A DNA stretch of 64,000 nucleotides, from IMG/VR virus record IMGVR_UViG_3300046822_000286. The stretch is one strand, 5' to 3'. Below the pieces are notes generated by a model, which was not told where the DNA came from, did not search any database, and saw nothing but the letters and a program-made list of their open reading frames with translations. The DNA is from a virus. Positions 3,907 through 57,167 of the stretch are shown in pieces; the first letter of the stretch is position 1; the number at the start of each line of letters is the position of its first letter. The translations under genes were made by a program, and so were the position numbers.

Positions 3907-3907
3907 G

Positions 3908-4162
3908 TTAGTTCCCTCCAAGTACGGCTACAAATTTCATACAACGCTCTTCGCCCTCGCCGATCAGAATCTGAAATAGGATGACCGCATCTACTGGCGG
4001 CAATGAGGTCGGCAGGTAGTATCGTCCGTTGGTCCGCTTGCACAGCGTGGCATCAACGTCACGAAACGTCTGAATGTCGTCTATCCACGGCCTCGGGTTG
4101 CCGACGATACTGAACTCGAGCTCGGTGATCAGCATTGCTCGAGGATTAATCGATTCCGTCAT
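3908..4162 (-). CDS. hypothetical protein (84 aa)
   Basis: ORF in the operon frame, overlaps the upstream nuclease gene by 17 nt. No motif recognised. Confidence 0.55.
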   Translation of the reverse strand: MTESINPRAMLITELEFSIVGNPRPWIDDIQTFRDVDATLCKRTNGRYYLPTSLPPVDAVILFQILIGEGEERCMKFVAVLGGN

Positions 4163-5276: not shown

Positions 5277-5283
5277 CGGCGGT

Positions 5284-5325
5284 AGACTAACAGGAAAAAA
5301 AATGGCGCGCAATTTAATTTTTTAA
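5284..5325 (-). promoter_or_regulatory. candidate promoter with upstream A/T box, possibly giving a leaderless nuclease mRNA
   Basis: Minus strand reads TTAAAAAATTAAATTG box (5325..5310), TTGCGC (5312..5307), 17 nt, TAGTCT (5289..5284). ATG 5276 follows the -10 element by 7 nt, with no SD. Confidence 0.35.
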
Positions 5326-14020: not shown

Positions 14021-17000
14021 TCAATGGGTCACCGGCGCCGGCACCGGCGGTTGCCCGATAAATCCACGGATGCGGTCTGGGGTTGCTTTGAAACTATTGC
14101 GGTGGATCTGATATTCCAACGCGTCCAGTTCGTTGAGATACGCTTTCTTCTGTTCCGGATCGGTTGTCTTGTGCATCAGGCCTTCGACCACACGGATCTG
14201 GTATTGCGGCTTCTCCCGCATCCGCTGGATATCGCTCGGCTCGGATCCAGCCTGAGCCGAGAACGGGTGCGGGCCGGTCGGGTTCGGGCCCGGCTGCTCC
14301 AGCAGTGGTTCGATCATGGCGTCACGCTGGTCGAGCGAGATCTGGCCGGACTCCCACATCACGAAGGCGTCGGCAACCTTGTACATCTTCACGTCGTAGA
14401 GCGACTGATTCCAGTTCCGGTCGTTGTACCAGTCCTTCACGTCCGGACCGTTCGGATCGACCGATCGGATACCGAGTGCCCGCTTCCAGGCGAACGGCCC
14501 GTTCGAGGTCAGCCAGTTCCAGACCGGCGAGTCCGGGCTGTCCATCTGTTCGGCGCGCATCAACTGCATGTACGGTGAGATCAGTTTCTTTGCGACATAT
14601 TCTCGCTGTAGGCGCTTGCCGATATCCGTCTGGGGGTTGTCCTTGCTCGGATCGCCCCAGAGGTTCGGCTCGGATTTCGAGACGATATCCTGCCCGGTGA
14701 ACGAGTCCTTGTTCGCCTGCAGGTCGATGTACGTCTTCATCATCGGGTTGAGCAACTGGTAGAGCATGGCGGCCGGCGCCGTCGGTAGAGGACCGCCGTG
14801 CGGCTGATGCCCAAACATGTCTTCCAACTGCTGGCGCGCGGCATCCTCGAGCGTCGACTTCCCGTCGAGCACCCGGTCGAGGTTGGACTCGAGCGTGTGG
14901 AGACCGCCCCACTGCTTCACGATATCGGTCGGCGTCTCCATGGCGAGAATCACCGGTCTGCCGTTCTCGTCGTGGAATGGCGTGTTCAGGTGCATCATGT
15001 TCCGCTGCCAGTCGGCGAGCTTCTTCTCGATCTCCGGATACAGCAGGTGATTCCAGACGAAGGTGCTGATGAATAGACCGAGCACCATCTTCAGCAGAAA
15101 CTCGTCACCGGGGAAAAACTTCCCGGTGTGCGCCATACGCCGCATCCACGGCCCGATAATCTTCACGTGGAAGACCGAGAACGGGAACGTCACCGAGTAG
15201 AACAGGTCCATGCGGGGCGATACGGCACCGTAGTCGGGGTGGATGGACTCACGCGCCACCTTGCCCAACGCCAGCATCGACTTCGGATCCAGTCCGCCAA
15301 GGCTGATCCCTTTCACGACAACCGGTTGCCCGTTCGAGACGCGTTCCAAGTCGGCCATGAGTTTCGCAAACTTCGGGAACGACTGAACGATCTGGCCGGC
15401 GCGCTGCCATTCGCGGACGAGATCGCCGATCGGGTTGTCGCGCCAGTTCGGATTGCGGAATTCCCGGAAGGCCGGCGCGTTGACCGCTCGAGGCTGGCTT
15501 CCCGCGTAGAAGACGGAGTTCCATATCCTGAAGTCCTCGGCTAACTGCATCACCTGCTGGTACTGCGGCGGCGTCATCTTGCTTCTGAGCGCGTCGAGCG
15601 CCGCCGGCTGCTTCATCAGCGAGCCGAGATCCTCGGCGTAAGCGGCTATCTCGTTGCCGATCGTGATGTGCGTGTAGTACGTCAGCCCGGACGAGTTGAT
15701 CACCGTCCCCTTCCAGGCGCGGGTGGCCGCGCGGGCGAGTTCGGTGAACGGGTTCTCGAGATTGTTCTCCCGGAAGTGTTCCAGTTTGTCTGCGATCGGC
15801 GCCGGCAGCAGATAGATCTTGTTTTTGCCGCCGAGGGCGAGCGCTGGGCGCGTCAACTCTTCGCCGGTATCGGTCTCCAACTGTGGCGGCACCGGGGATG
15901 ATAGCGCCGCGTTCCGGAATGCGTTGACGTCGATGGACAGTTCGTCCATACCGGCCTTCACGGCATCCCAGATCACCTCGTCATTGATCGCACGCACCGG
16001 GTAGATCACGTTGCCTGGGTTGAACTGGAATCCCTTCAATACGATATTGTCCGGCAGTTCTCCGGTGTAGCCGGGGCCGCCGCGGCTGGCCGTCAGGATC
16101 TCGTCCTTCTGCTTCACTGTCAGCGTCGAGGTGTCGAGCACGTAAGACCGTCCGATCTTGGCCTGACCGGTCCTGTTGCCGACCAACTGTTGCCTCTGTG
16201 TATCGTCCAACCACTGGTTGAAATCGTGGCCATCGGCGGTACGGCTGATGAAATCGTCGATCATGTTATGCAGATAAACCCGCGTACCGTACTGCTCCAT
16301 CACTCGGATCCAGTCCGAATCGTGCGGCACGAGATGGCCCTTGCGGTTACGCAGGTAGAGCCGGCGCGGGTTCTGCATGCGCGTCGGCAGACCTGGTAGC
16401 CGGTCAATCGCATCACCGATGCCGCGGATGATCTGATTCGGGAAGTATTTGATCCGGCCTTCATCCGGGTCGACCTTGCCGCGTCTGGCGAGTTCGTTCC
16501 AGACGTCTTCCATCCAGCCGTGGAATCGATCGACGGCATCGCGCACGGCAGGAGTGGCAATCGAATTCAACCGGGCGATCTCTGCATCGATACGGTTCAG
16601 TTGGTCTTTGCCAGGCAGTGGGACACGGTCTTCGCCTTCACGGGCGGCCGTCTCGTACATGTCTTCCCAGAAGACGATCGAACGGAAGGCATCGTAGCCT
16701 GAGCGGTCCAGTCCCTTGACGACCTTCTCCATCTCCTTCTGCGTCTGGGCCGATGCGTCCCGCACAAGCTCCTGCGCGCGCCGCACCTCTTCGGAAAAGC
16801 CCGGCCAATCGCGGAGGTTCTCGTTGTAGCGGGCGACGGTCATGAAGCGGTAGACCTGCCCCGGGATGTCCTTGATCTCCTGCCAGACGTTACGCTGACC
16901 AGCTGGGACATCAATCAGTTTCCGCATCTCCGGATCTGGAGATGGGATCAGGTTCGGCTGAATCGATGGAGGAGGCCTCTTCTGCCAGAAGTTCACAGCG

Positions 17001-20000
17001 CCCTTCTGCCCGAGTTCCTTGCGCACGCCATCCACGATTGCCGGATCGGCCTGCAGTGCCTCCGCAGAGCGGTTCCAGTCGCCCAGTTTGGCTAGGCGTT
17101 TCGCTAGCAATACCCCGCTCCCGATCGATGGTGCCTTTGCGATTCGGTTTCCGGATACAGTGTGCAAGATCTCGAAGCCTTCGCCTTCCAGTTCAGGTGT
17201 AACGGCCAGTCCGGGCACGACCGGGTACACCTTCACCGTCTGGCCCTTTCCGTCTCTGGTAGGGATACTCAGCGTCGTTTCCCGTTGCTCTGGAGGTGCG
17301 GGCACCGGCGATGGTGAACCCATGGCGTTCGGTCCAGGCACTGGCGGCTGATCGGGCGATGGCGTTGGCTCGGTGGCCATCGCTTCATGTTCCGGCAGGA
17401 CGGGCATGCCCTTTTCCTTCATTACCGGAATCAGTTCTTTCAGTTTGGCCTTGTCCGCCTCGATCGCCTTGCGTGCTTCGTTTATAGCCTTCTCCGCCTT
17501 AGCGACCGTCTCGGCGCGGGTCTGCTCTTCCTGTCGTAGGTTCGCGATAGCGCTGCGGTGCTGTTCGATCAGGCGCGCTGTGTAGTCGGCGTTGCCGCGA
17601 CCGGCCTTAATGTCCGCCGTGTACTGTTCGATCTTCTGCTCGCGGCTGGCAATCTCATCCTGTACCTGCTTGAGCATCCGCCGGTCTTCGGCGACGACAT
17701 CGGTCTCAAGTTCGGCCAACTTCTCCGTGTTCGTCGTGATGCGCCGCGAGACCTGCCAATACTCGAGCGTCGAAGTATCGATCTGGGCCTCCGCTGAGAT
17801 GTCGGCGTAGTTGCGATGGTCCTGATCGAAGTCCATGACCTGATCGGCGTCACCGAACCAGAGGTTCTCGTTCCACTGGGCCTTGCGCGCCAGCATCGCG
17901 TACATCTTGGCGTCCGACGTTCCCTTGCCGACGTACCGATGGATACGTACCGATTCCTGCTTGTTGCCCTGGCGGACACCGCGGCCCTCGCGCTGCTCCA
18001 ATGCGGCCGGCGTCCACGGAACATCGTAGTGATGGATGTCGGTCGTGTTCGCCTGTAGGTTCATGCCCTCGCCCATCGATGACGTGGTCCCGATCAGGAA
18101 GCGCACCTTACCTTCGGCGTTCAATTGTTGCACTTTGAACTTCTTCGCCGCGCTGTTATTCGTTGCCTGATTGATGATCGCGATCTGGTCTTCCGGGATG
18201 CCGGCGGCCATGAGCGCTTCCTTGATCGACTTGTGGACATTGACCAATTCGTAGGTCTTGATCTTGCCAGGAGTCGCCTTGTCGCTGCTATCTTTCGTGT
18301 CGCTGGCTGCGGTCGACGACGCCTCGAGATCGTTAACGAGAGCCGCAGCATCGTCATCGACATCAACGCCGTGCAGTTCACCCTCGCCCTTCTTGGCGAG
18401 CCATGCCTGGATCAGTTTCTCTTCCTTGCTGCCTTCCTCCACGTGGGCGACGGCCCGGTAGATATCCATGAAGATCAATTGGGTGTTGTCACCCTGCTCG
18501 GAATCTTTGACCTGCCGGATGATCTCGTTCAGTTTCGAGCCTTCGCGCCCCAACGAGTTCGCATACTTCGTCGGGTTGTAGATGGCGAGATCGCCAGCCA
18601 GTTTACGCGCGAGTGTCAGGACCGACAGATGGTTCCATCCATGGGCCGCTGCGTCCGCGAAATGCTTCGTGACCCATTCATCCAACTCGGCTACCCGGGC
18701 GGCTTCATAGATCACCGCAGGCGACGGATTCAGCAGGTGCTCGGTGTACGCCGGCGTCGGACGATTCAGCGCAAAGGCACTGGTCGGACGCATATCGATG
18801 TAGCGGCGGAAGATCGACCGAAGATCGTTCAGGTTCTTGTAGCCAAGGAAGACCGTCCGGATCTTCGGCACTCCGGTCGTCGACGGTTCCTCGACCTGTC
18901 CGACGATGCCGAACTGCTCGACGAAGTCGCCCGCGTTGTGGATGCCGCGCTGCTTCCACTCGTCCGGCGCGATGTACTTCATCATCGAATAGATTTCGAT
19001 CGGGTTGTTCGGCGTCGGCGTCGCTGTCGCCATCCAGACGTTCTGTCCTGGACGGCCACCCTTGCGCTCGTGAATGTACCGAGTCTTGTAGCCCATGTCG
19101 GCCGCGCGATCGGAATACGATCCGGCGTGCAGCCAATCCGACATGTCCATGTACTGAACCGGAGCGTTCTTGTAGTTGTGGCCCTCGTCCACGATGATCG
19201 AATCGATTCCGGTATCTTCGAAGAAGATCGCATTCGTCTTCTTCATGTCCTGAATCTTGGCCAACTTTTCGGAGTATTTCCGGATCTGCTCCTGAATCAT
19301 GGACTCCGTCTTCTTGTCGTTCTTCTGGCTGACCGCATGGAGGCGCTCGCTCAGTTCCCGCAGGTCCTCCTGGATGTACTCCTCGGCGGAGCGTAGCGGG
19401 ATTTCCTTCATCCCTTCGTAGGTGCTCAGGACAAAGTCCGCATCGCTGGACGCTACTCGGTGCAGCGTCTTGTTGCGGTTCTTCGAGTTCATGCCACCGG
19501 TGTCGAGGATGAAGGCGTTCGGGAACATCTGCATGATCTCGTAGCCCCAGTTCTTGATCACCTTCGCCGGCACGACGTATATCGGCTTCCTGATCAGTCC
19601 ACGCTGCTTTGCCAGTTGGCCCAGCATGATCATCGCCATGGTCTTACCGCTACCGACACCCTGGCCGTTGATACCAGAGCGCATATGCAGCATTTGATTG
19701 GCGACTTCCCACTGGTGGTTACCGATCTTCAATGGCTTGCCCTTGAACGTGCCAGACATGCCGTTGACCTGAACTTCCTGAGAGGACGGAGACCGGTGCC
19801 GATAGGATCGGTACATCCGGTTGTACGTCGGTACGAGGTGCTCGGTGAGCTTAGGATTCTGCGAGAACCAGTCCTTGAAATGGTTCCCGACCTGATCGAT
19901 GATTCGCTGTTTGGCGAGATCGAAGATCTCTTTCCTCTTCGGATTGCCGCGGTAATCGGTTTCACCGGTATCAATCCACTTCGTGAGCCGCTTGTGGTTC

Positions 20001-23000
20001 AGGAACCCCTGAATATCCTCGGCCGTAAATTCGTGGTCGGCCATCTGGTTCGTTTTCGGATCGGTGATCACGTTCAGTTTGAGCCGGCCGGCTCCTCCGA
20101 TCTCCCACATGGTCCGGTTATTCTCTGGAACGTATTCCTGAATGCCGTTCATGCCGAACGATCGAAGCCACTGGATAACCGTTCCCTGGTCCATGTAGGA
20201 AGCGAACGGGTCGACCGGCAGGTTCTGGATCGTCGCCTGCTCTGGCAGCGCCGCGTGCAGCCCGCTGAGTTGATGCTTCAACTGCGATACGATCTGCGGG
20301 TCGGTGGCCTGCTGGAGCATCGCCTCGGTCTGATCGATCTTTGGCCAGATCGGGCCGTACATGTACTCATCGTCGATATTGATCGTCGGCTTGCCATCCG
20401 CGCTGAGGCTCTCGATGCTGAAGCCGGGCTTACCCACGAGGTCCTTGTCGATATCCGCCGGCTCCCCGTTGTACTTCGCTTCGATCTCCGGACGAGAGGC
20501 CGCGAATTCGCCGGTCTGCTCGTAAACAAACTTGGCGACATCAGCGAGATCTTTATCGTTGTACGCTCGGGCGACAACCGGTTGGCGGTAGATCGTGTTG
20601 CGATCAAAGATGTCGGCAAACTTTCCTTCGTCGTCCGTCAGACCGGCCAGCAGCCACCGCCGCGGATCTTCGAACGACAGCACCATCGACTCCGTTCCGC
20701 CGTTCAGGAATCTCCACAGGAACGGATCGTAGCCAGGAGGCTTACCTAACTTCTTGCCGGTCTTGTCGCCGTATTGTGAACGGTAGTTCGTGATCGCGGC
20801 CTTCAGTTGTGGCCGGATCTTATTCGCCGTCGCATCGTCGTTCTGCCGGAGCGCGCCGTACAGGCGGTCCGCCATGTCCATCATATTGACGGCTGCGAGC
20901 AATCGTCCCTGCGTTTTCTCTGGTAGCCCCTTCGGGAACGCGGGGTAAATATTCCCGTCCGAGTGGGCGAATGCCAGATCATTCGTCTTGGGCCTGACGA
21001 TCAGTGTGCCATGGCGTACACCTTCCGGCGCCTTGCCGACCGGCTTCTCGGTCTCTATCTCGGCGTTCGGCGCCGCGACCGTCTCTTCCGGCTTCCACTG
21101 GATATGATCTCCAAGGCTCGTTCCGATGAAGTCCTCGATCGGCTTTGTCGGACGGACGCCCATGCGCGTGACTTGTCGCACGCCATAGCCGGCCTCCGGC
21201 TGTCCCCACATCTGCCCCGGGTTCTCGATGTAGTATTTCGAGATGCGGGCTGGCGGCTGATCCGGCTTCGAGAACTTGTCGGTCGTTGTGGATTCGACCC
21301 AGTCCTTGTTGTAGCCGAACGGACGAGTGAACCCCATCTTAGCGAGGTCCTCGACGGTGGCAATCTTGCCTTCCTTTAGCGCCTTGAATGCTTCGATCTC
21401 TTCGGGCGTACGCTTCCGCAGCAGGATGGCGTCGACAGAACCGCCGTACTGGGTGTTCTTTTTAAACTCACCAGCTGGTGTGCGGTACGCGCCGAGGAAC
21501 TCCGCCTTCTCGTTGATCAGTTTCCTGATCTCGTCTCCGGCTTTGTCCATCGTGCCGGTCGACGTCAGGAAGAATACGAGGCCGTTCGGTTTCGCCACGT
21601 CCAATCCCTTCACAAAGAAGAAATCGTGCAGCGTGTCGATGTCCTTGTATTCCTGCGCATCCTTCGCGTAGCGGAGTTCGCCTCGGCTGGCCGAGAACGG
21701 TACGTTCGACATGACGATGTCGAACTTCTGCCGGCTATTGAAATTCTCGAACGGTTTGTTATGGACGGTCGCGTCCGGGTACAGCAACTGCGTGATCTTC
21801 GCCGCAATCGGATCGATCTCGACGGCGGTCATTCGCACGCCAGCAGGCGCGAAGCCGAGATAGTTACCGACGCCGGCCGCTGGTTCGAGCATGCTCGCGC
21901 CTTCGAGCGGATAGCCCATGGCAGCAAGTTTGTCCCACTGCCATTGAACGACTTTGTAGGAAGTGTAATGCTGGAAGAGGACGCCTTCATCGGCGGTTCC
22001 CAGCCCACCCTGGCCAGTGTACTGGCGAAGGATGTCTTGCTCTTCTGGCGTGAGCGGGTCGCCTTGGTTCTTCGCACCGGCGATCGCAATCGCCTTGGCG
22101 TTGATCTCGCGCCGCTGCTGTGGCGTCAGATCGATCGGCTCTTTCCCGACTAGGGTAAAACGTTCTCCGGTGGCTGGCCGAGGCTGCTGTTGTTGAGGTC
22201 TTCTCGGAGCTCCTGGCTTGGAAGGCCTCCCTGGAGATACTCCTTCGCCAGATCCGACACCAGGTTCTCCCGGCCCACCTTCTCCACGTGGTCCTTCGGC
22301 AGGCGGTCCACCTCCTGCTCCGCCAGTCGGTTCGCCCGCTGGACCCTCTCCATTTCCGACTCCGGTTGTTGGCTTAGCATTGACATCGGATTCTCCTCGC
22401 GGCGCTGGTACCGGCGGCGGTCCGCGATCGGGCGGTCCGGCGGTCGGCTCCTGTGCCGGTTTCTCTGGTGGCGGCGGAGCGGATACCGGCTTCTTCCCGG
22501 TCGCGGCCGCCACGTCGTCGATTAAAGCATATGCTGTCGGCAGGTAAGGTGCCACCCAGTCGCCAGCCGCACTCATGGCGTGCGACCACGCTGGCCAGTC
22601 GGGCGATGTCTGATAGAGGTAGGCGCCGAGCTTTAGGAGTTTGGCCCGGGTACCGGGGTCGAGTTGGGTGATGTCGGCATCACTTCGCTCAGGTCCGGCG
22701 CCGCCGGCCACTTCGGGTTGCGCACCTGGACCGCCGCTCGGTAGACCTTCGCCGCGTCCACGCCCTCCGACTGCGCCTTCTCCAGCAACATCCTCAGCAC
22801 CGGCTTGCTCATCTCCTCCGGTTGCAACGCTGGAGCTAATCTTGCCAAATATGTTTTCTCCTGCCCACTGAGGCCGGAGGTTGGTGAGGTCGTCATAGAG
22901 TCCACTATATGCCTCGCCGCCGTTGTGTTCCAGTACGGCCTGCAGTTCGGCCTGCACGTGCGCCGAGTCCAGTAGCGTGAGGTCGATGTTTCTGGAGAGC

Positions 23001-26000
23001 TCGCCTGCGAACTTTTCATCGTGATCACGCACGGCCTGATGGCTCAGTTCATGGACGAGCGTCGAGACAATGCGAGCCGCTACCATGGCCGGCCCTTCCG
23101 TGGGGGCGATGTGCCGGAACTGGATGGCGGAGAGGACCTCGTCCATGATCGTGTACGGGTTCACGAGGATCAGGTTGTGATCCCAATCCAGCATCTTGCC
23201 GTGGATATTGATACCGAGATATTTGGTGCCGAGGCCGATGCCGATAGCGGCTGGATCGAGTTCGCCGTCCATTCGCCCCCGGTTGATCGCGCCAAGCAGC
23301 GTGTCCATGGACGACATGATCTGGTCCGATAGCCGCTGGACGTACGGGCGCTTCGACAGCGCTTCGACCTGGTCCGGCGGAAGATTGCCAGAGGTGTCAA
23401 CGATCGGGAGCGAATTCGGTCCAGGGATGACAGGGGCATTCAGTATCCGGTCGACGTAGGCGGCTTTCTCGCCCTCGAGCGCGCGGAGGACGAAGTTATC
23501 ACTCAGCCATTCCCGTATCTTTTCCGTCAGGTCGTGATCGCGGATGCGTTCACGGTCCGGCGCGAATGGATATCCAGCCTCCTCGGGGCCGGCCTTCGGA
23601 TGGATGTTGACGACGAGCGGGCCTGGCAGCATGGTTCCGGAGAGATGCTTCGGCACGCTGATGCTGTTGTTGAACTGGTACAGACCGTTATTCAAGATGG
23701 AATAGGTAACCGCTCCGTAGTCGCCAACCTTCTCCTTCCCGTCGCCCAGATGAATATCGGCAGACGATCCAGGCGTCTCGACCTGTGCCAGTTTCTGCAG
23801 CCGCACGGAACTCGGTTCGATGAACAGTCCGTTAAGTTTGAAACTGACCCGGTACGGCAGTAGCGATGTCGACTTCATCATGTCGCCCGCGAACCGGCCC
23901 ATGTAGAACTGCCCCATGGTGACGTCCGGGCTGAGTTTGATCCGGATATTGGTCCCAGTGATTTCCTCGTCAGCAGGATGCGTCTCGACGTCCAGGCCTA
24001 GTTCTGGATCGACCCAATCTGCCCCCTTACCGTAGAGTGTCGTGACGAAGCGCTTGCCGGTCTTCGGATCTTCGGCGACCGTATGGATATCGATCTCGTC
24101 GGCGTTGGCAAAAATGGCCACCTTGGCGATCCCGAACCCGCCGGAGGAACCCTCGGCCTTCTTGCTGCCGCCGATGTCCATCAGTTCTTTCTGCGCGACT
24201 TCCGGCGTCATACCGGAGCCGTTGTCGGCCATGTAGATGGTCCGCCTGTTAGTATCGACCTCGATCGTTACGCCGCGCGATTCCGGATTGTCCAGTCCGC
24301 GCAGGGAGTCGAGGGCGTTCTGCAGCATCTCGCGCACGGCGACGACGCCGAGATCGCCGTTATAGAGATTGCCGCCGAGCGTCTTCACGATGCGCGGATC
24401 CAGACCGGCAGCGGCCTTGCCCTCTCCGGTCTTCATCTCGCTGATCATATTCTGCCGATCGGCGAGCCACTGCTTCACGCGGGCAACTTCATTAGGCTTC
24501 GGTGGTTTCAGACGTTCGCGGATGGAGTTTGCCCGATCGTACGCGTCCTTCGCGGCGGCGAGAAGTTCGTCGTCGGATCCGAGATTCAGTTCGCGCGGTC
24601 CAGTGTGGCCGGTTCCAAAGCGCGCCTTGTCGAGGATGTCCTTGATGCGCTCAACGACTTCGTCTTTTGGATAGAGGCCGCGCACCAGTTCGTCGTATTG
24701 CCGGGCGAGATCTTCTTCGGTCCCGGCCTCAGCATCTTCCGGGTATAAGACGTTCTCCACCTCGGACTGTGACATCTCGGAATCGATACGATCAATCAAG
24801 TCGTCAAGTTCGCCCTCGAGTTTATCGATGCCGCCAGTCTTGCCAGACTCATATCGTTGATCGATTTCGTCGGCAAGGTTCTCGGCCCGGTCGACCATCC
24901 GCTGGAGTTCGTCGGGCATGGCGTGACCCTTGAGCGCGAGGTTACTCGAACGCTTCATCTCGCTGACGAAGTCGCTAATCTTCTTCGGATTGATCGCGCT
25001 CTCCGGCCCCAGCGCGAGATCCTTCATCAAATCGTCGATCGCGCCGGTCTTCGGCGTCTCGCTGAGCGCCTCCTTCACGATCTCCGCGTCGCTCTTCGCC
25101 TTGCCTGTCGGCTTCGGTTTCGGCGCAGGCTTTGGTGCCGGGGCCGGCTTCGGACCTGGCACAGGAGCCGGACCGGCAGCAGGAGGTGCGGCTGGCGGTA
25201 GACCGCCCGCCATCGTCTCGTACTCCTTCTGCATCTGGTCGGCGACACCCTGCGCCGACGCCTGATCGGTAAACGGAGTACGGGGAAGCGGCGCGCCATT
25301 CGGGCGCACGACTTCAAACTTGCCGTCTGGTGTTTGGCGGACCGAATAGCTACCGCGCGGCGCCGCGACCGGCGGTCCAGCGACGGGCGGGAGGGGCTTC
25401 GGCGCTTCCGGCGCCGAGACCGGCTTCGTCTCCGGCATCTTTCCGCCCATCGACTGGAACTGATCGTCGGTCAACTCCGGATAACCGAACGCCTTCATCG
25501 TCTTGAGATAGTTCGGATGCCGCTCGTGGACGGTACCGTCCGCAGTGACAACCTTGCCCTGATAGGTTCCGGCCACGTCCTTGCCGGCAATCACGAACTG
25601 CTTCTTCGGCTTGAGCGCAGGCGGCTGTGGCGCTTCTGCCGGTGGAGGCGGAACAGCGCCGGCTGGCACGTTCGCCTGACGCTCATGGGCGTGCCGGATC
25701 AGTTGGATGCTGGCCTGACCGTTCGGTGGCTTCTTGTCGTCGAGCACCCAGCCGTCTTTGTCTTTGTACAAATACTCGCGGCCACCCGTATCGGCGTACG
25801 CGCGGAGGAGTTTCGACGGGTCGATCCGGTAGTCCTCCGGCATCCCACCCTCAAGCCACGCGTGGATCCACTGGAAGACGCGGGAGTGGCTCAGGATGCC
25901 GACGCTCTCCGTCGGATTCTTCTCGAACTCGTCCATGATCCGCTGGACCGTTGGGCCGAGTTGATCTTCCCACTGATGGAAGCTCTGTCCGTCCCTGGTG

Positions 26001-28492
26001 GAGATCGGACCGCGCCCGCTCGGTGCCGCATCCGGCATATCCTGCGCCAGCGCGTTGATCTTCGGCAGGACATCCTTCATCGGCTGTCCCTCGAGGCCTC
26101 CAAGCGCCCACGCCTGTAATCCGCGCTCTGGCACGACCTGGATGTCCGGGTGAGCGCCTTGGACCACCTGCGCAGTTTCTACCGCCCTTTGCGCGTCGCT
26201 CGTGTAGATCTTCTTCGGCAGGTCGGTCGCCGCGGCGAGTTTGGCCGCGTCCTTCTTGCCCTCTTCGCTCAGGCCGACGCTCGAGGAGCCGTGGTTGACG
26301 TCGCCATCCGGCGTCTCCATGCCCTTCGGCAGGTTCTTGTTCTCGGGGATCGCGTCCGGATGGATCTCCTGACGGTTCGGTCCCTGCACTGTCTCGACGT
26401 CGGCGGCGGGGATGACGGTGCTGGTCTTACCACCAGAGATTGTTGCGGCAGCTGGAGGCTCGCCCGGCTTCGGAGCTCCGGGCGGGAACGGTACTTCTTC
26501 GCCCGGACCCGGGAGTGGCGGCTGCGCACCCGCTTCCGCTGGCGCTCCTGGCTTTGCCGTGAATCCAGGGCCTTCGACGGTTCCCGGCTCCTCGAACGGC
26601 GCCGGCCCTCCGGTCTCACCTGCTGGACGGCCAGGTCCACCGGCTGGCGCTTCGACCTGCGCTTGCCCGGGGACGGCGAGCGGCTCCTTCGATGCACCCT
26701 TGACTCTCGCGGCCTTGTCCTTGATCGACTTCCGGGAGACGTTCTCGACGCCACCCTGCTCGGCGACCGCCTGATCGACGAGGTCGCCAGCCATCTTCTT
26801 CGCGCTCTCCGGATCGAACGTGTCCGGGCGCCGGCCGTACAGAACTTCGGATACCTCAGCCTTGAGATCGTTAATTGCCTTGATCTTTGCCGCCGTACCG
26901 ATGCCGCCTGCCGTCTCTGCGATCGTATGGAAGATTGCGGCCGCTCCCATGGTCGTGGCGATGTGCTCAAGACGCGTCTCGTGGAATCCGACCTGCGGAT
27001 TCTTCTCCCCTGTGTCTTCTTTCGGTTCGACCGCTCCGACGATAAACGCCGTACCGAGCGTGTTCTCGAGCCGCGACAGGATATTCGCCGCAATCCCGGT
27101 CTCAGCGGTTCCATACAGCGGAGCTAGCAGCCGGGAGATCCTTGCCCACGGTGCGCTCGCACCGATCAGGCTGGATACGACATTTGTCGCCGCCTGCCAC
27201 TTATCCGCCGGCGCCGCCATGCCCAACTGTTCCAGTTTCTCTTCGGTGCCCGGGATGACCTTGAAATTCTTGTCGAGGATTGGGATGTGGATCGTGCCGG
27301 TCGCGGCCTGCGCCACGCCAAGGGTGGCGCCGGATAGCATGCTCTCCCCGCCGCGCACCGTGCGCCGGTACAGATCCTGCGCGAGGGCCGTCCACGGCTT
27401 CGGCTCCTCCGGCTTCATTCCGCCGGTTGATGCAATCGCGCCGCGCTCAAGGCCGGCAACCCGCGCCTGCAGTGCCTCCGGCGTCTCGTTCTCCGACGTG
27501 TCGCGGAATGGCGACACCTGCCGGTTCCTGTCGTGATCCTCGTCGATCGGCAACCCGAGGCGCTGCGCCTGACTTTCGTGGAGGTTCTGCGCGAACGCTT
27601 CGGCGTCTGGGACGTTCGTGAATTTGCCGAGGTGCTCTCCGGTTTTGTGGTACCGGTCGATCGCTTCCTTATCGCTAAGCAGTTTGCCGTCAACGACCGT
27701 CGGAACGACGACCTCTTTGCCGCCCTCGTCGAACGACATCGAACGCGTGGTCGAGATCGAGCCGTCCGGATTCTTCAAGATCGGACGGTTGTACAGATTC
27801 TTGATCGTCCCCGGCTCAGCCTGACCGGTCGGCGTCAGCGATTCGCCGCGCTGGAGTTTCAGCAGATCGGTCTGCGTTAGTTCAGGATAGCCAGAATCGT
27901 GATAGATGCGCAGGTTGTTCGGATTCTGTGTCGTCTGGGAACCGTCGCTCATGACTAGCGCATTACCGTGAGTGCCGGCAATCGAAAGCGGCTTTGGCGG
28001 AGCGGCCGGGGCCGGGAGCCGAAGTTCCGGATTCGTTAGGTCGGTCGGGGTGGCCGGCGTGTTCGGTGTGACCGTCTGCCGGTTCGTGCCGGTGACCGGA
28101 GGAGCAGGAACGGGGACCAGCGGGGTCGCCTTCGCCAGGTTTGGTGCCTGCAGTTCCTTGCCGAGTTGCAGGGCAGCGGCCGGCGCGCCCTTGATGATGT
28201 CCCATGTGGAAGGCTCTTTCGGAGTCAGCGGCGTCGGTCGGACCTTCGGAGCCTCGGTGTCCCAGTAGGCATCCCACAACCGGCTCTTGGATTCAGACGG
28301 CAACTGCAGGCCGCGTACGTACTGCTCGAGTTCGGCGTGGCCTAGCGTCTGATCGAACTTCGACCGGATGTCGGCGGCCTGATCCGGCGGTAAGGCCTTG
28401 ATGATCGAATCGATTTGCTGTGACCGACCGAGCGGCGCGGCTGGCGTGGTTGGCGCCTGTACCGGCGGCGGAGTCGTCAGTGTTTCAGCCAT
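14021..28492 (-). CDS. giant multi-domain (polyvalent) virion/ejection protein, 4,823 aa, with DarB-like methyltransferase-helicase core
   Basis: 14,472-nt ORF without a stop. GGAG lies 6 nt upstream of ATG 28492. Motifs were verified against the DNA: MLQNALDS/DNGSGM/GGFGIAK (GHKL), HELSH, EPAAGVGN + NVPF (MTase), GSGKT + DEGH + QREGRGVRQGN (helicase). Pro/Ala/Gly-rich linkers separate the modules. Confidence 0.9.
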   Translation of the reverse strand: MAETLTTPPPVQAPTTPAAPLGRSQQIDSIIKALPPDQAADIRSKFDQTLGHAELEQYVRGLQLPSESKSRLWDAYWDTEAPKVRPTPLTPKEPSTWDIIKGAPAAALQLGKELQAPNLAKATPLVPVPAPPVTGTNRQTVTPNTPATPTDLTNPELRLPAPAAPPKPLSIAGTHGNALVMSDGSQTTQNPNNLRIYHDSGYPELTQTDLLKLQRGESLTPTGQAEPGTIKNLYNRPILKNPDGSISTTRSMSFDEGGKEVVVPTVVDGKLLSDKEAIDRYHKTGEHLGKFTNVPDAEAFAQNLHESQAQRLGLPIDEDHDRNRQVSPFRDTSENETPEALQARVAGLERGAIASTGGMKPEEPKPWTALAQDLYRRTVRGGESMLSGATLGVAQAATGTIHIPILDKNFKVIPGTEEKLEQLGMAAPADKWQAATNVVSSLIGASAPWARISRLLAPLYGTAETGIAANILSRLENTLGTAFIVGAVEPKEDTGEKNPQVGFHETRLEHIATTMGAAAIFHTIAETAGGIGTAAKIKAINDLKAEVSEVLYGRRPDTFDPESAKKMAGDLVDQAVAEQGGVENVSRKSIKDKAARVKGASKEPLAVPGQAQVEAPAGGPGRPAGETGGPAPFEEPGTVEGPGFTAKPGAPAEAGAQPPLPGPGEEVPFPPGAPKPGEPPAAATISGGKTSTVIPAADVETVQGPNRQEIHPDAIPENKNLPKGMETPDGDVNHGSSSVGLSEEGKKDAAKLAAATDLPKKIYTSDAQRAVETAQVVQGAHPDIQVVPERGLQAWALGGLEGQPMKDVLPKINALAQDMPDAAPSGRGPISTRDGQSFHQWEDQLGPTVQRIMDEFEKNPTESVGILSHSRVFQWIHAWLEGGMPEDYRIDPSKLLRAYADTGGREYLYKDKDGWVLDDKKPPNGQASIQLIRHAHERQANVPAGAVPPPPAEAPQPPALKPKKQFVIAGKDVAGTYQGKVVTADGTVHERHPNYLKTMKAFGYPELTDDQFQSMGGKMPETKPVSAPEAPKPLPPVAGPPVAAPRGSYSVRQTPDGKFEVVRPNGAPLPRTPFTDQASAQGVADQMQKEYETMAGGLPPAAPPAAGPAPVPGPKPAPAPKPAPKPKPTGKAKSDAEIVKEALSETPKTGAIDDLMKDLALGPESAINPKKISDFVSEMKRSSNLALKGHAMPDELQRMVDRAENLADEIDQRYESGKTGGIDKLEGELDDLIDRIDSEMSQSEVENVLYPEDAEAGTEEDLARQYDELVRGLYPKDEVVERIKDILDKARFGTGHTGPRELNLGSDDELLAAAKDAYDRANSIRERLKPPKPNEVARVKQWLADRQNMISEMKTGEGKAAAGLDPRIVKTLGGNLYNGDLGVVAVREMLQNALDSLRGLDNPESRGVTIEVDTNRRTIYMADNGSGMTPEVAQKELMDIGGSKKAEGSSGGFGIAKVAIFANADEIDIHTVAEDPKTGKRFVTTLYGKGADWVDPELGLDVETHPADEEITGTNIRIKLSPDVTMGQFYMGRFAGDMMKSTSLLPYRVSFKLNGLFIEPSSVRLQKLAQVETPGSSADIHLGDGKEKVGDYGAVTYSILNNGLYQFNNSISVPKHLSGTMLPGPLVVNIHPKAGPEEAGYPFAPDRERIRDHDLTEKIREWLSDNFVLRALEGEKAAYVDRILNAPVIPGPNSLPIVDTSGNLPPDQVEALSKRPYVQRLSDQIMSSMDTLLGAINRGRMDGELDPAAIGIGLGTKYLGINIHGKMLDWDHNLILVNPYTIMDEVLSAIQFRHIAPTEGPAMVAARIVSTLVHELSHQAVRDHDEKFAGELSRNIDLTLLDSAHVQAELQAVLEHNGGEAYSGLYDDLTNLRPQWAGENIFGKISSSVATGGDEQAGAEDVAGEGAVGGRGRGEGLPSGGPGAQPEVAGGAGPERSDADITQLDPGTRAKLLKLGAYLYQTSPDWPAWSHAMSAAGDWVAPYLPTAYALIDDVAAATGKKPVSAPPPPEKPAQEPTAGPPDRGPPPVPAPRGESDVNAKPTTGVGNGEGPAGEPTGGAGGGPPAEGPRGEGGPGEPGVGSGEGVSPGRPSKPGAPRRPQQQQPRPATGERFTLVGKEPIDLTPQQRREINAKAIAIAGAKNQGDPLTPEEQDILRQYTGQGGLGTADEGVLFQHYTSYKVVQWQWDKLAAMGYPLEGASMLEPAAGVGNYLGFAPAGVRMTAVEIDPIAAKITQLLYPDATVHNKPFENFNSRQKFDIVMSNVPFSASRGELRYAKDAQEYKDIDTLHDFFFVKGLDVAKPNGLVFFLTSTGTMDKAGDEIRKLINEKAEFLGAYRTPAGEFKKNTQYGGSVDAILLRKRTPEEIEAFKALKEGKIATVEDLAKMGFTRPFGYNKDWVESTTTDKFSKPDQPPARISKYYIENPGQMWGQPEAGYGVRQVTRMGVRPTKPIEDFIGTSLGDHIQWKPEETVAAPNAEIETEKPVGKAPEGVRHGTLIVRPKTNDLAFAHSDGNIYPAFPKGLPEKTQGRLLAAVNMMDMADRLYGALRQNDDATANKIRPQLKAAITNYRSQYGDKTGKKLGKPPGYDPFLWRFLNGGTESMVLSFEDPRRWLLAGLTDDEGKFADIFDRNTIYRQPVVARAYNDKDLADVAKFVYEQTGEFAASRPEIEAKYNGEPADIDKDLVGKPGFSIESLSADGKPTINIDDEYMYGPIWPKIDQTEAMLQQATDPQIVSQLKHQLSGLHAALPEQATIQNLPVDPFASYMDQGTVIQWLRSFGMNGIQEYVPENNRTMWEIGGAGRLKLNVITDPKTNQMADHEFTAEDIQGFLNHKRLTKWIDTGETDYRGNPKRKEIFDLAKQRIIDQVGNHFKDWFSQNPKLTEHLVPTYNRMYRSYRHRSPSSQEVQVNGMSGTFKGKPLKIGNHQWEVANQMLHMRSGINGQGVGSGKTMAMIMLGQLAKQRGLIRKPIYVVPAKVIKNWGYEIMQMFPNAFILDTGGMNSKNRNKTLHRVASSDADFVLSTYEGMKEIPLRSAEEYIQEDLRELSERLHAVSQKNDKKTESMIQEQIRKYSEKLAKIQDMKKTNAIFFEDTGIDSIIVDEGHNYKNAPVQYMDMSDWLHAGSYSDRAADMGYKTRYIHERKGGRPGQNVWMATATPTPNNPIEIYSMMKYIAPDEWKQRGIHNAGDFVEQFGIVGQVEEPSTTGVPKIRTVFLGYKNLNDLRSIFRRYIDMRPTSAFALNRPTPAYTEHLLNPSPAVIYEAARVAELDEWVTKHFADAAAHGWNHLSVLTLARKLAGDLAIYNPTKYANSLGREGSKLNEIIRQVKDSEQGDNTQLIFMDIYRAVAHVEEGSKEEKLIQAWLAKKGEGELHGVDVDDDAAALVNDLEASSTAASDTKDSSDKATPGKIKTYELVNVHKSIKEALMAAGIPEDQIAIINQATNNSAAKKFKVQQLNAEGKVRFLIGTTSSMGEGMNLQANTTDIHHYDVPWTPAALEQREGRGVRQGNKQESVRIHRYVGKGTSDAKMYAMLARKAQWNENLWFGDADQVMDFDQDHRNYADISAEAQIDTSTLEYWQVSRRITTNTEKLAELETDVVAEDRRMLKQVQDEIASREQKIEQYTADIKAGRGNADYTARLIEQHRSAIANLRQEEQTRAETVAKAEKAINEARKAIEADKAKLKELIPVMKEKGMPVLPEHEAMATEPTPSPDQPPVPGPNAMGSPSPVPAPPEQRETTLSIPTRDGKGQTVKVYPVVPGLAVTPELEGEGFEILHTVSGNRIAKAPSIGSGVLLAKRLAKLGDWNRSAEALQADPAIVDGVRKELGQKGAVNFWQKRPPPSIQPNLIPSPDPEMRKLIDVPAGQRNVWQEIKDIPGQVYRFMTVARYNENLRDWPGFSEEVRRAQELVRDASAQTQKEMEKVVKGLDRSGYDAFRSIVFWEDMYETAAREGEDRVPLPGKDQLNRIDAEIARLNSIATPAVRDAVDRFHGWMEDVWNELARRGKVDPDEGRIKYFPNQIIRGIGDAIDRLPGLPTRMQNPRRLYLRNRKGHLVPHDSDWIRVMEQYGTRVYLHNMIDDFISRTADGHDFNQWLDDTQRQQLVGNRTGQAKIGRSYVLDTSTLTVKQKDEILTASRGGPGYTGELPDNIVLKGFQFNPGNVIYPVRAINDEVIWDAVKAGMDELSIDVNAFRNAALSSPVPPQLETDTGEELTRPALALGGKNKIYLLPAPIADKLEHFRENNLENPFTELARAATRAWKGTVINSSGLTYYTHITIGNEIAAYAEDLGSLMKQPAALDALRSKMTPPQYQQVMQLAEDFRIWNSVFYAGSQPRAVNAPAFREFRNPNWRDNPIGDLVREWQRAGQIVQSFPKFAKLMADLERVSNGQPVVVKGISLGGLDPKSMLALGKVARESIHPDYGAVSPRMDLFYSVTFPFSVFHVKIIGPWMRRMAHTGKFFPGDEFLLKMVLGLFISTFVWNHLLYPEIEKKLADWQRNMMHLNTPFHDENGRPVILAMETPTDIVKQWGGLHTLESNLDRVLDGKSTLEDAARQQLEDMFGHQPHGGPLPTAPAAMLYQLLNPMMKTYIDLQANKDSFTGQDIVSKSEPNLWGDPSKDNPQTDIGKRLQREYVAKKLISPYMQLMRAEQMDSPDSPVWNWLTSNGPFAWKRALGIRSVDPNGPDVKDWYNDRNWNQSLYDVKMYKVADAFVMWESGQISLDQRDAMIEPLLEQPGPNPTGPHPFSAQAGSEPSDIQRMREKPQYQIRVVEGLMHKTTDPEQKKAYLNELDALEYQIHRNSFKATPDRIRGFIGQPPVPAPVTH
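15035..15202 (-). other. two hydrophobic helices in the C-terminal region of the giant ORF (aa 4431-4486)
   Basis: FYSVTFPFSVFHVKIIGPWM and LLKMVLGLFISTFVWNHLLYP. These are possible membrane-insertion segments, as in podovirus ejection proteins. Confidence 0.35.
17888..19720 (-). other. domain of giant ORF (aa ~2925-3535): SF2 helicase (SNF2/DEAD-like)
   Basis: Walker A GQGVGSGKT (19640..19654), DEGH box IIVDEGHNYKN, ATATP, C-terminal lobe GEGMNLQ and QREGRGVRQGN. Confidence 0.8.
21398..22045 (-). other. domain of giant ORF (aa ~2150-2365): N6-adenine DNA methyltransferase
   Basis: Motif I MLEPAAGVGNY, AVEIDP, and motif IV FDIVMSNVPF (NVPF at 21695..21706). Confidence 0.75.
22883..23275 (-). 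other. domain of giant ORF (aa ~1740-1870): zincin-like metallopeptidase (HExxH)
   Basis: TLVHELSHQAVRDHDEKFAGEL. HELSH is encoded at 23039..23053 (checked on the DNA). Confidence 0.5.
23918..24379 (-). other. domain of giant ORF (aa ~1372-1525): GHKL (MORC/Hsp90/MutL-type) ATPase
   Basis: N-box REMLQNALDS, G1 box MADNGSGM and G2 box SSGGFGIAKVA, in canonical order and spacing. Confidence 0.65.
25838..26311 (-). other. domain of giant ORF (aa ~728-885): histidine-phosphatase (phosphoglycerate-mutase-like) fold, divergent
   Basis: DVNHGSSSVGLSEEGKKDAAKLA...IYTSDAQRAVETAQVV...DGQSF...GILSHSRVFQ parallels RHG...SSP-x-RA-x-QTA...GES...VSHG, but RHG is NHG here. Confidence 0.45.
27563..27811 (-). 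other. domain of giant ORF (aa ~228-310): conserved NRP-x3-NPDGS-x-ST...VPTV...HLG module of unknown function
   Basis: TIKNLYNRPILKNPDGSISTTRSMSFDEGGKEVVVPTVVDGKLLSDKEAIDRYHKTGEHLGKF. I recall similar modules in large phage/plasmid polyvalent proteins but cannot name the family with confidence. Confidence 0.3.
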
Positions 28493-31879: not shown

Positions 31880-33571
31880 CTATGGTTCCGTCGCGATCAC
31901 CTGAGCGGCTCCTGTAGGCCAGCGTACCTTAAGTTCCATCTTGCCGCCGCCGTTCAGATGGAAATATAGCCGCCCATGCGATACCGGCGCATTCGCCGGG
32001 TCCGCAATACCAACGCCCTCAAGATACTGATAGATGGCTAACCATGACCCAAATACGCTTCCGTTCTGGCCAGCATCAAAGTTGACCGTGTTGAGACCGA
32101 ATCCCGCATTTCCTACCCCGACAATAGCAACGGTATCCGTGCTGGTGGAGTTCACAGCAGAATAGTTCTGGGCATACGGGATGGAAACGAGGTGAGTCGC
32201 TGGGACAAGGTGATTGATGCGTAGACCGCCACCGAGAGTCTCGCCAATGATGGTACCAATAGCGTCCGGGTCCACGGTAATAAAATCGCTCGCCGGAATC
32301 CCGATGAGTCTTCTGGATACACCCGTGCTGTTCAATTCACGAATGAAACCGAGATTCCCTAGATTCAGGATGCCGCTGGTACTAAAGGTATTCAGGCCCA
32401 GCGTTTGGGTTTCGCTTCGATAGACGAAGAACCCAGTAAATCCAGTCGTTGATAGAGTGCCTCCGTTCGCAGAGAAGTTCCAGTTGTTGAACATGAAGTC
32501 GGCGCAGGTCGCATCTGCGTTGAGGGCTGTGCCGTTCCCGATGTACCAGTAGTTGTCGATGCTGGCACCGTTGATGCCACGGAGGAATAGACCGCCGCCT
32601 TCGTTGAGAGTGGGGCCGTAGGCGTTGCGGATCGTCAACAACTGGATTGCGTCGCCACCGCTGAGGTTGCAGCGGAAGCAGTAGTGTGTCGCATCTTCGA
32701 CCTGCTCCCGTCCGACATTGTCGAAGCGAACCATCACTCGGGCACCGACTGCAGCACCGGTCCCATTCGATATGTAGTGGAAGCCATCGAAGCCTTTCAC
32801 CCATGCCTGATAGCCATCGAACAACATGTGCTGGATGAAGATATTGTCCTGGCAGGTAATGACGTGATTTTGGTTCGCGATAAGATTGCAGTTGCGGAAG
32901 TGAAAGTGGTCCGCGTCAATCGTGCTGTTCGGGTTCTTGCCAATGTAGATTGGATTGTCCGCTGCAATCGAGATGCGATTGAAGTCCGTGGCCTCGTGCC
33001 CATTAGTTTGAATGCCGATGCTGGAATTTGTGGCATCAGACCAGTATTGCGTTCCACCATGGACAACGCTTCCACCGACCACGATGTCCTCAACGTAGAA
33101 TTCGGCAGTCTGTACCGTGTTTAACGCCACCTTCACATAGGTAGAGTCATTGGAGAAAAAGCCAATACCGCTAATGCCGCCTGTGAATATTTCCTGACCG
33201 GAGTCAAACGCGAGGCATGTTCCATTGGCCGTCGGGGCGAATAGCAATTGTGTCGCTACGGGGCCAGCTCCTTTCAGGAAGACTCGATTGTTGGCAACGG
33301 TGACCTGACTTGTGGTCTTGTAGGTTCCAGGCGGGAACCAGATCAGGGAGTTGGCACCGGCGGCATTGATACACGCCTGGATGGCGGCAGTATCATCGTT
33401 GATGCCGTCTCCAATAGCGCCAAAGTCCTTGACGCTGTACATGCCGGCAAAGGTGTGCAGCCCGATCCGATGAAGAGTCTGCGTCGAACTATCCGGCAGC
33501 ACGACAGCGTCTGTGCCGAAACCGAGTTGCAGATCCTCTTCATGGATCTGGCCGAATATGATGTTTTCCAT
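31880..33571 (-). CDS. tailspike 1, pectate-lyase-3-type beta-helix depolymerase
   Basis: 563 aa. VKDFGAIGDGINDDTAAIQACINA hallmark. The N-terminal ~45 aa (MENIIFGQIHEEDL...STQTLHRIGLHTF) are shared with the two other tailspikes. Confidence 0.8.
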   Translation of the reverse strand: MENIIFGQIHEEDLQLGFGTDAVVLPDSSTQTLHRIGLHTFAGMYSVKDFGAIGDGINDDTAAIQACINAAGANSLIWFPPGTYKTTSQVTVANNRVFLKGAGPVATQLLFAPTANGTCLAFDSGQEIFTGGISGIGFFSNDSTYVKVALNTVQTAEFYVEDIVVGGSVVHGGTQYWSDATNSSIGIQTNGHEATDFNRISIAADNPIYIGKNPNSTIDADHFHFRNCNLIANQNHVITCQDNIFIQHMLFDGYQAWVKGFDGFHYISNGTGAAVGARVMVRFDNVGREQVEDATHYCFRCNLSGGDAIQLLTIRNAYGPTLNEGGGLFLRGINGASIDNYWYIGNGTALNADATCADFMFNNWNFSANGGTLSTTGFTGFFVYRSETQTLGLNTFSTSGILNLGNLGFIRELNSTGVSRRLIGIPASDFITVDPDAIGTIIGETLGGGLRINHLVPATHLVSIPYAQNYSAVNSTSTDTVAIVGVGNAGFGLNTVNFDAGQNGSVFGSWLAIYQYLEGVGIADPANAPVSHGRLYFHLNGGGKMELKVRWPTGAAQVIATEP

Positions 33572-57133: not shown

Positions 57134-57167
57134 TAGAGTGACTGCCAACTCCGCGTCATGCCGTCCC

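Follow-up and report, generated by a model that had tools for sequence, protein, structure and literature searches.

Metallopeptidases were the commonest hub domain in the founding survey of polyvalent proteins, which proposed roles for them in self-processing or as effectors (Iyer et al., 2017; PMC5512222); as searched, the survey text nowhere mentions GHKL, Hsp90, HATPase, or histidine kinase. Here, we describe a phage-encoded polyvalent protein in which a putative metallopeptidase is fused to an Hsp90-like ATPase. The gene lies in a 64,000-nucleotide stretch of phage DNA (59% GC) from IMG/VR record IMGVR_UViG_3300046822_000286, hereafter called the window, and consists of a single unbroken minus-strand frame for a giant DarB-like protein of 4823 residues. 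Residues ~1360-1890 of this protein are, as judged by sequence comparison, one autonomous, horizontally mobile cassette of ~530 residues in which an Hsp90-type ATPase and a probable zincin are linked. Metallopeptidases of polyvalent proteins are already known; what is new here is a previously undescribed Hsp90-like partner that is almost always attached to this one. Full-text literature searches returned no description of a paired Hsp90-like or GHKL ATPase and zincin, in line with an initial annotation of the window, made by reading the DNA, which knew of no characterized phage-injected GHKL-zincin pair.

Several described systems share parts of this architecture. The metallopeptidase domains of polyvalent proteins are closest in context, as they too are zincins that accompany an SNF2 helicase and an N6-adenine methylase within a giant multi-effector phage protein, occur with the LPD38 and LPD39 domains that are also found in carriers of the cassette, and have been assigned the same two candidate roles, but the zincin described here lies within a fixed three-domain unit that includes an ATPase (PMC5512222). 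ArdC of plasmid R388 is likewise a protein of a mobile element in which a Spartan-related metalloprotease domain is fused to a targeting domain (PMC7213743). In ArdC, however, the partner is a single-stranded DNA-binding domain rather than an ATPase, and the third metal ligand is a glutamate (gluzincin) rather than a histidine. The DarB protein of phage P1 has the same methylase-helicase anti-restriction core as the giant protein, and the Hsp90-zincin module lies outside that core.

Wss1/WLM and SPRTN/SprT proteases have small zincin domains with the HExxHx5H motif, a following aromatic residue, and the same spacing of the three histidines (HELSHQAVRDHDEKF in the cassette versus HELTHNLFGPHDKKF in Wss1), but the likeness spans only ~30 residues, and the cassette lacks their SUMO, ubiquitin, or DNA-binding modules. 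The active sites of Wss1 and SPRTN are open and cut flexible segments only, and these proteases depend on the Cdc48/p97 ATPases to unfold substrates. Those ATPases are separate proteins of the AAA+ type, whereas the ATPase of the cassette is fused and belongs to the GHKL type. MutL and FtsH likewise combine an ATPase with a metal-dependent hydrolase in a single polypeptide, and in both the nucleotide state governs cleavage; MutL cuts DNA, however, and the match of its GHKL domain is much weaker here (E ~1e-4) than that of Hsp90, whereas FtsH combines an M41 zincin with a hexameric AAA+ unfoldase that is unrelated to GHKL. Phage T4 rIIA and other phage GHKL proteins have an N-domain of the same superfamily with the same pre-motif helix, and many rIIA models were found among structural matches in the BFVD viral library (~340-370 columns), but the C-terminal region of rIIA is unrelated, contains no HExxH zincin, and the similarity is weaker than that to Hsp90.

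The peptides that the initial annotation had cited as marking a GHKL site followed by an HExxH motif (22883-24379, corresponding to residues 1372-1870 of the giant protein) are all present in the expected order in this one minus-strand frame (Table 1). The distance between the two parts had been put at about 290 residues, which is wrong; translation places the HExxH ~356 residues past GGFGIAK and ~390 residues past DNGSGM. When the module was modeled with AlphaFold2 using a 24-sequence alignment, a single-chain model was obtained (predicted local distance difference test, pLDDT, 86.9; predicted template-modeling score, pTM, 0.75) in which three predicted domains are packed against each other. 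With a 4-sequence alignment, pLDDT fell to 55.7 and the C-terminal half was unusable, and Foldseek searches with that model gave Hsp90-like similarity over the N-terminal and middle domains only.

Profile, family, and structural comparisons all relate the ATPase half to Hsp90. A 24-sequence profile searched against the PDB matched the N-domains of HtpG (E 1.1e-12), TRAP1 (E ~1e-11), and Grp94 (E ~1e-8), and the same profile matched topoisomerase VI-B and MutL at E-values of 5e-5 and 8e-5, respectively. The initial annotation had proposed a "MORC/Hsp90/MutL type" of GHKL ATPase; a genuine, Hsp90-like GHKL ATPase is borne out, but on these profile scores (~1e-4 to 1e-5 for MutL and topoisomerase VI-B versus 1e-12 for HtpG) a MORC- or MutL-type identity was set aside in favor of Hsp90. 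Motifs I-IV occur in order and Pfam HATPase_c_3 scores above its gathering score, as expected for a member of the GHKL superfamily, and the same Pfam family was above threshold in most of 18 carriers scanned. The best NCBIfam match was "HSP90 family protein" (E 1.4e-10), at 40.2 bits against a full-length cut-off of 455, and the HtpG model gave 15.3 bits against a cut-off of 371; by these thresholds the cassette falls outside the full-length Hsp90 family. Comparisons using hhalign gave a probability of 98% with an HtpG-like protein, over the N-domain only, and 90.5% (E 1.4e-6) with T4 rIIA.

In the predicted model, the blocks of the N-domain have pLDDT values of 88-97 except in the lid, and a Bergerat fold, as the initial annotation had anticipated, is predicted both by this model and by its Foldseek matches. 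All 50 of the 50 best Foldseek matches in the PDB were Hsp90-family structures (E 1e-15 to 1e-13), and fragments of TRAP1 comprising the N-terminal and middle domains aligned over 353-373 columns, ~140 of them beyond the N-domain (4z1i_A: TMt 0.53, root-mean-square deviation 6.4 Å). In BFVD, the unnamed protein A0A516L4L2 matched the entire model (E 1.7e-26, TMq 0.68); the remaining matches were rIIA, viral Hsp90-like proteins, and topoisomerases, mostly over ~330-390 columns, fitting the ATPase half. The ATP lid is shorter than that of HtpG in the profile alignment, with low pLDDT at residues 107-113 of the modeled segment. Like HtpG, TRAP1, Grp94, and cytosolic Hsp90, the cassette has a Bergerat domain with motifs I-IV as well as the pre-motif helix NLYxG...KExLQNAxD, and its predicted N-terminal and middle domains superpose on the TRAP1 fragments. 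Unlike them, it has a zincin instead of a dimerization domain, a much shorter lid, and a middle domain that cannot be aligned by sequence, and it is embedded in phage polyvalent proteins, whereas Hsp90 is a free cellular chaperone. Based upon the profiles and the predicted model, the ATPase half is an Hsp90-like N-terminal plus middle domain with a short lid and without the Hsp90 C-terminal domain: Hsp90-like, but not an Hsp90. Its Hsp90-type ATP site appears intact, and ATP binding and hydrolysis are predicted.

The HExxH half is related to known peptidases over a shorter stretch. A profile of this C-terminal domain had its best PDB matches in Wss1p (5xbn, E 0.0056, 30 residues) and an S. pombe WLM protease (5jig, E 0.022), with an alignment that covers IvaTliHElaHqearGHneeF of the profile and IMGTMLHELTHNLFGPHDKKF of Wss1. 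In a Pfam scan of 24 members, all matches were sub-threshold (WLM, 9; YgjP-like, 9; SprT-like, 3; Zincin_1, 2), and all four of these families are zincin-type peptidases; the WLM score of 19.3 bits lies below the gathering score of 26, and the module shares the type of motif with that family but no demonstrable membership. Membership in the SprT family was considered and dropped at an hhalign probability of 2% against E. coli SprT. The model predicts, in order, a helix (segment residues 377-400), three strands (409-415, 421-424, and 434-438), a second helix (440-452), an active-site helix (458-478) that ends in the HExxH, a turn with the third histidine, and a long helix (487-536), an order that fits the layout of the zincin core described in PMC5512222. 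The sequence HELSH (residues 1814-1818) stands at the end of the 458-478 helix, with the third histidine six residues past the second, and matches to the whole model were dominated by Hsp90. From the motif, profiles, and model, we conclude that this half is probably a zincin with an apparently intact three-histidine site of the Wss1/SprT type that belongs to no demonstrable curated family, and peptidase activity is predicted.

Conservation was assessed in 125 aligned modules; in the 24-sequence set, identity to the query was ~25-44%. The HExxH, whose absence from homologs had been named beforehand as a result that would count against the zincin assignment, was conserved in 125 of 125 aligned modules, with H1814, E1815, and H1818 invariant, as expected for part of a conserved zincin-type domain. 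Because catalytic residues of both halves are invariant across such divergent modules (Table 1), both active sites are under strong purifying selection in every copy, which makes decay, or a role in structure alone, hard to reconcile with the data. At its C-terminal edge, the module ends in a moderately conserved short tail motif, WAGENIFGKISSSV, with the consensus [YW]xx[ED][DN][ILV][FL]xxx[GS], in which the [DN], [FL], and [GS] positions are conserved in 86%, 88%, and 75% of 130 carriers, respectively. The tail is followed in most carriers by a low-complexity linker rich in glycine, serine, and proline, and has a pLDDT of ~75 and one beta-bridge residue in the AlphaFold model; candidate roles are a site of cleavage and a strand that resembles a substrate.

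Table 1. Coordinates of the giant open reading frame, its cassette, and other genes of the window. Residues are numbered in the giant protein, and percentages are conservation in 125 aligned modules.
Feature	Residues	Window position	Strand	Evidence or conservation
Giant polyvalent DarB-like open reading frame	4823 residues	14021-28492	-	Single open reading frame; Pfam and PHROG matches
Hsp90-like ATPase plus zincin module	1360-1890	22823-24415	-	Similarity limits, profile search, AlphaFold2
Hsp90-type GHKL (Bergerat) N-domain	1360-1545	23858-24415	-	Pfam, NCBIfam, PDB profile, hhalign, Foldseek
HATPase_c_3	1384-1494		-	Pfam 29.6 bits, gathering score 25
Pre-motif tyrosine	Y1377			100%
GHKL motif I, EMLQNALD	1388-1395	24308-24331	-	Conserved alignment columns; E1388, Q1391, N1392, D1395 100%
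Cited peptide REMLQNALDS	1387	24305-24334	-	Translation
GHKL motif II, DNGSG	D1423, G1425, G1427	24212-24226	-	99-100%
Cited peptide DNGSGM	1423	24209-24226	-	Translation
Short ATP lid DIGGSKK...GGFGIAK including motif III	K1445, G1451, G1452, G1454, K1457	24122-24178	-	97-100%; lid lysine K1445 99%
Cited peptide GGFGIAK	1451	24122-24142	-	Translation
GHKL motif IV, TGT	1512-1514	23951-23959	-	88-100%; G1513 invariant, T1512 and T1514 88-90%
Middle (transducer-like) domain	1546-1685	23438-23857	-	AlphaFold2, Foldseek; beta-rich, then long helix
Conserved middle-domain residues	N1601, G1603, Q1606			97-100%
Middle-domain loop YPFAPDRE	Y1641, P1642, F1643, R1647, E1648	23549-23572	-	Y1641, P1642, R1647 100%; F1643 94%; E1648 87%
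Putative zincin-type metallopeptidase domain	1686-1875	22868-23437	-	Model order, PDB profile, sub-threshold Pfam
WLM, weak match exactly over HExxH	1807-1829		-	Pfam E 0.036
Cited peptide VHELSHQAVRDHDEKF	1813-1828	23009-23056	-	Translation
Predicted metal-binding/catalytic motif HELSHQAVRDHDEKF (HExxHx5HxExF)		23009-23053	-	H1814, E1815, H1818 100%; H1824, F1828 90%; E1826 65%
Tail motif WAGENIFGKISSSV at C-terminal edge of module	1876-1889	22826-22867	-	Alignment of 130 carriers
His_Phos_1	735-888	25829-26290	-	Pfam E 1.2e-14; upstream of cassette
Eco57I/N6_Mtase	2244-2344		-	Pfam
SNF2-rel_dom plus Helicase_C	2928-3509		-	Pfam
Tail-spike-like gene 1		31880-33571	-	PHROG tail families
Tail-spike-like gene 2		38314-40008	-	PHROG tail families
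Major head protein		58166-59152		
Portal		62248-63954		

The cassette is widespread. An exhaustive profile hidden Markov model search of 1.84 billion cluster representatives (clusters at 50% identity) returned 3499 representatives at E<=1e-3, of which 419 reached E<=1e-30, mostly as full-length matches; ordinary relatives of Hsp90 are bound to be among the weakest of the 3499. A word-index search was nearly blind by comparison (4 relatives with the single sequence and 3 with the 24-sequence profile, versus 3499), and its negative outcome, taken alone, would wrongly have suggested an orphan. The carriers analyzed here (n=151) are 150 matches listed of the 3499 together with P0004 from the word-index search. 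The profile matched in one piece from ATPase to zincin in 124 of the 151, and most of the remainder have the same order interrupted by insertions; thus, by sequence, the two parts are almost always paired and in the same order. Two of the four word-index relatives, the 825-residue carrier P0001 and the 943-residue carrier P0003 (the latter 21% identical), have both the GHKL motifs and HExxHx5HxExF.

Carriers have a median length of 2027 residues and a maximum of 5889. Most are proteins of 1000-5900 residues that have only the cassette in common with the protein of the window, and ~8 of the 151, of 589-943 residues and on phage contigs, are near-standalone copies. When the giant protein was compared with the carriers by BLAST, similarity was confined to residues ~1340-1900, and the methylase/helicase region was also shared in only ~4 of 151, from which we take the cassette to be mobile and independent of the DarB-like core. 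These sharp borders uphold the proposal in the initial annotation that the ATPase-zincin pair is separate from that core. Partner domains of the cassette differ between carriers. Some of the 18 carriers scanned with Pfam contain LPD38 or LPD39, domains that were defined on polyvalent proteins (PMC5512222). In carrier P0001 (L001, 10001-12478), the cassette has a direct fusion partner in an Acb1-like 2H phosphoesterase (PF23474, an anti-CBASS family), and the gene adjoins an integrase, a transposase, and a gene for an 1830-residue RadC-containing protein. In P0023, the complete module occurs twice in tandem (residues 2348-2837 and 3037-3535), and P0016 and P0136 each have one extra zincin-only copy distant from the full module.

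At least 42 viral contigs in IMG/VR, 14-178 kb in length, carry the cassette, a lower bound because one peptide pattern was used. Searches of the module against 50,697 GenBank phage records by tblastn gave no match, and a second carrier, searched against GenBank phages in the same way, matched rIIA genes alone, and these only in their GHKL part, mostly in phages with genomes of 70-78 kb. When 185,579 species genomes were scanned with a pattern, most matches were ordinary Hsp90-like N-domains (residues 29-130 or 29-212), and none was clearly a full module. A PADLOC search with the module gave only weak, motif-level matches (TmtA, 2.8e-4) and no resemblance to a known defense protein. Pfam covers only the ATPase third of the module in every carrier scanned, and the source annotations of carriers read "hypothetical," "HtpG," or "2'-5' RNA ligase."

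What might such a cassette do? The reading that we favor, tentatively and at a little under an even chance, is that it is a host-directed, ATP-coupled metalloprotease of an ejected polyvalent phage protein, and an effector role is plausible. The Hsp90-like part would bind and hydrolyze ATP; closure of the GHKL domains would hold or remodel a polypeptide and gate its entry into the shallow site of the zincin, where that polypeptide would then be cut. GHKL ATPases turn nucleotide binding into domain closure, and because Wss1 and SPRTN need partner ATPases to expose cleavable segments, fusion of an ATPase to a Wss1-type protease makes sense. The cassette would ride in the giant DarB-like protein, be packaged in the virion, and, being ejected with the DNA, would act during the opening minutes of infection. 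Packaging and ejection of the giant protein are likely, because its gene stands at the end of the virion structural block (tail-spike, head, and portal genes) and the protein has a DarB-like core. Preferred substrates would be one or more host proteins, either defense proteins or DNA-associated ones, and the carrier itself may be trimmed too. We infer the coupling of ATP to proteolysis, delivery into the host, and the choice of substrate.

A protease in the middle of a giant protein could instead serve that protein. Cutting flexible linkers after ejection or in the head would free the phosphatase, methylase/helicase, and C-terminal parts, with the ATPase acting as a switch or positioner. We judge this self-processing explanation, the chief rival, somewhat unlikely. 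The carrier is a plausible substrate, favored by the central position of the cassette (as in most copies, which are central in proteins of 1000-5900 residues), by its being the sole peptidase-like domain, with the sole HExxH, in 4823 residues, and by the tail motif beside a low-complexity linker at its C-terminal edge, a possible cleavage or docking site. Moreover, five linkers rich in proline, glycine, and alanine separate the globular parts (residues 591-701, 921-981, 1071-1141, 1891-1951, and 1981-2111), the third and fourth of them flanking the cassette, and Iyer et al. (2017) hold that metallopeptidases are a hub because they process polyvalent proteins (PMC5512222). The text of that survey as searched, however, ascribes no ATPase partner to any metallopeptidase clade of polyvalent proteins, so that linker cutting is not by itself enough to account for the attached, invariant Hsp90-like engine. 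Cutting of linkers that are already disordered should need no ATPase, which favors a host substrate, and near-standalone copies (589-730 residues) have nothing to release; with little or no carrier to process, they favor a role in trans. ATP cannot be a simple signal of arrival either, since the protein is synthesized in an ATP-rich cell before packaging, and the idea of "ATP as arrival signal" was set aside.

Other explanations assign a different job to one of the two halves. If the GHKL domains closed on DNA, as in MutL, MORC, and topoisomerase VI-B, the zincin might strip proteins such as restriction complexes or nucleoid proteins from incoming phage DNA, which would be a special case of host-directed cleavage. 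The only sequence neighbors of the zincin are the DNA-dependent proteases Wss1/WLM, the cassette of the window stands beside an anti-restriction core made up of a DNA methylase and an SNF2 helicase, and ArdC joins a DNA-binding domain to a related protease (PMC7213743). Clamping on DNA is nevertheless quite improbable in our view, because the ATPase is nearest to Hsp90 chaperones (HtpG, 1e-12) with DNA-acting GHKL proteins at 1e-4 to 1e-5, Pfam and NCBIfam detect no DNA-binding domain in the module, and most carriers lack the methylase/helicase. The Hsp90-like part might alternatively be a built-in chaperone that refolds the giant protein after passage through the tail, with the HExxH as a structural, regulatory, or non-protease metal site. 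All of the best structural and sequence matches are indeed Hsp90 chaperones, and ejected proteins must thread a narrow channel, as is generally known and exemplified by the N4 ejection proteins (PMC13434306), but the chaperone would itself need to be refolded first, standalone copies exist, and invariance of the catalytic glutamate in 125 copies, with the third ligand conserved in 90%, points to catalysis rather than scaffolding; we consider this possibility very unlikely. That the motifs arose by chance, or mark a decayed and functionless domain, has a negligible probability: by our own estimate a lone HExxH is expected ~0.1 times by chance in 4823 residues, but conservation already refutes this explanation, as catalytic residues are invariant in 125 divergent copies, the Pfam score of the ATPase exceeds its gathering threshold, 419 representatives match at E<=1e-30, and the model is confident.

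Several results weigh against host-directed, ATP-coupled proteolysis. About 95% of copies lie midway in large multidomain proteins with flexible linkers, an arrangement that fits self-processing equally well or better. The C-terminal dimerization domain of Hsp90 is absent, with the zincin in its place, which raises the question of how a GHKL clamp would close. Alignment with HtpG by hhalign did not extend to the middle domain or to its R1647 loop, and because this domain is unaligned to Hsp90 by sequence, a role for R1647 as a sensor of the ATP gamma-phosphate, like Arg380 of Hsp90, is a guess from its position in a conserved loop. The zincin assignment itself draws on the motif, on weak profile matches that fall below Pfam gathering scores, and on the predicted order of secondary-structure elements, and an hhalign comparison of the zincin profile with E. 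coli SprT aligned 15 residues (motif only) at a probability of 2%. Finally, ArdC has the most thoroughly studied metalloprotease domain of this broad kind from a mobile element, and its protease activity was dispensable for its phenotype in the assay used, with no substrate found (PMC7213743).

Outside the cassette, the giant protein has the composition of a polyvalent protein, with His phosphatase, GHKL ATPase, putative zincin, N6-methylase, and SNF2 helicase domains in 4823 residues. PHROG matches were to DarB-like antirestriction proteins (E 2.3e-146 over residues 2864-3678) and to a DNA methyltransferase (E 2.6e-191), and the His phosphatase domain is an additional enzymatic domain. The C-terminal ~1100 residues (residues ~3700-4823; window 14021-17390, minus strand) had no Pfam or PHROG family match and are common to 1 of the 151 carriers (P0008). 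PHROG scans of the neighbors of the giant gene and of the neighbors of P0067, a standalone homolog of 589 residues, gave no functional names.

Elsewhere in the window, the capsid protein shares only 25-27% identity with its counterparts in Myxococcus phages Mx8 and Mx9. The two tail-spike-like genes encode proteins with similar N-terminal anchor regions that match the same PHROG tail families, and the pair suggests two receptor-binding proteins. Genes resembling an aminotransferase, a methyltransferase, and a glycosyltransferase lie between the head and tail genes (46308-47780, 51607-53241, and 56210-57196, minus strand), a hint that the virion or the host surface may be modified with sugars. 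At the left end of the window, 1918-3783 (minus strand) matches a PHROG SbcC-like ATPase, and the frames at 620-1255 and 4146-5312 (minus strand) are, by eye, candidates for a RuvC-like resolvase and a PD-(D/E)XK/Cas4-like nuclease; if these candidates are right, the genes from 620 to 5312 would make a recombination and repair block.

The cassette is common yet has been missed by annotation, and it adds a domain type that the survey by Iyer et al. (2017; PMC5512222) leaves unmentioned in its text. With a compact size of ~530 residues and standalone versions in existence, it could be expressed and tested directly. In the strongest version of the reading favored here, which we regard as doubtful, the cassette would be the first ATP-dependent protease driven by a GHKL/Hsp90 engine and a widespread virion-delivered weapon that clamps and cuts specific host proteins early in infection. 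To our knowledge, the well-studied energy-dependent proteases (Lon, Clp, FtsH, HslUV, and the proteasome) all run on AAA+ motors. If the ATP-coupled mechanism is true, the cassette would represent a new class of energy-dependent protease, in which coupling to a GHKL ATPase would be a different solution from AAA+ and a new job for the Hsp90 fold.

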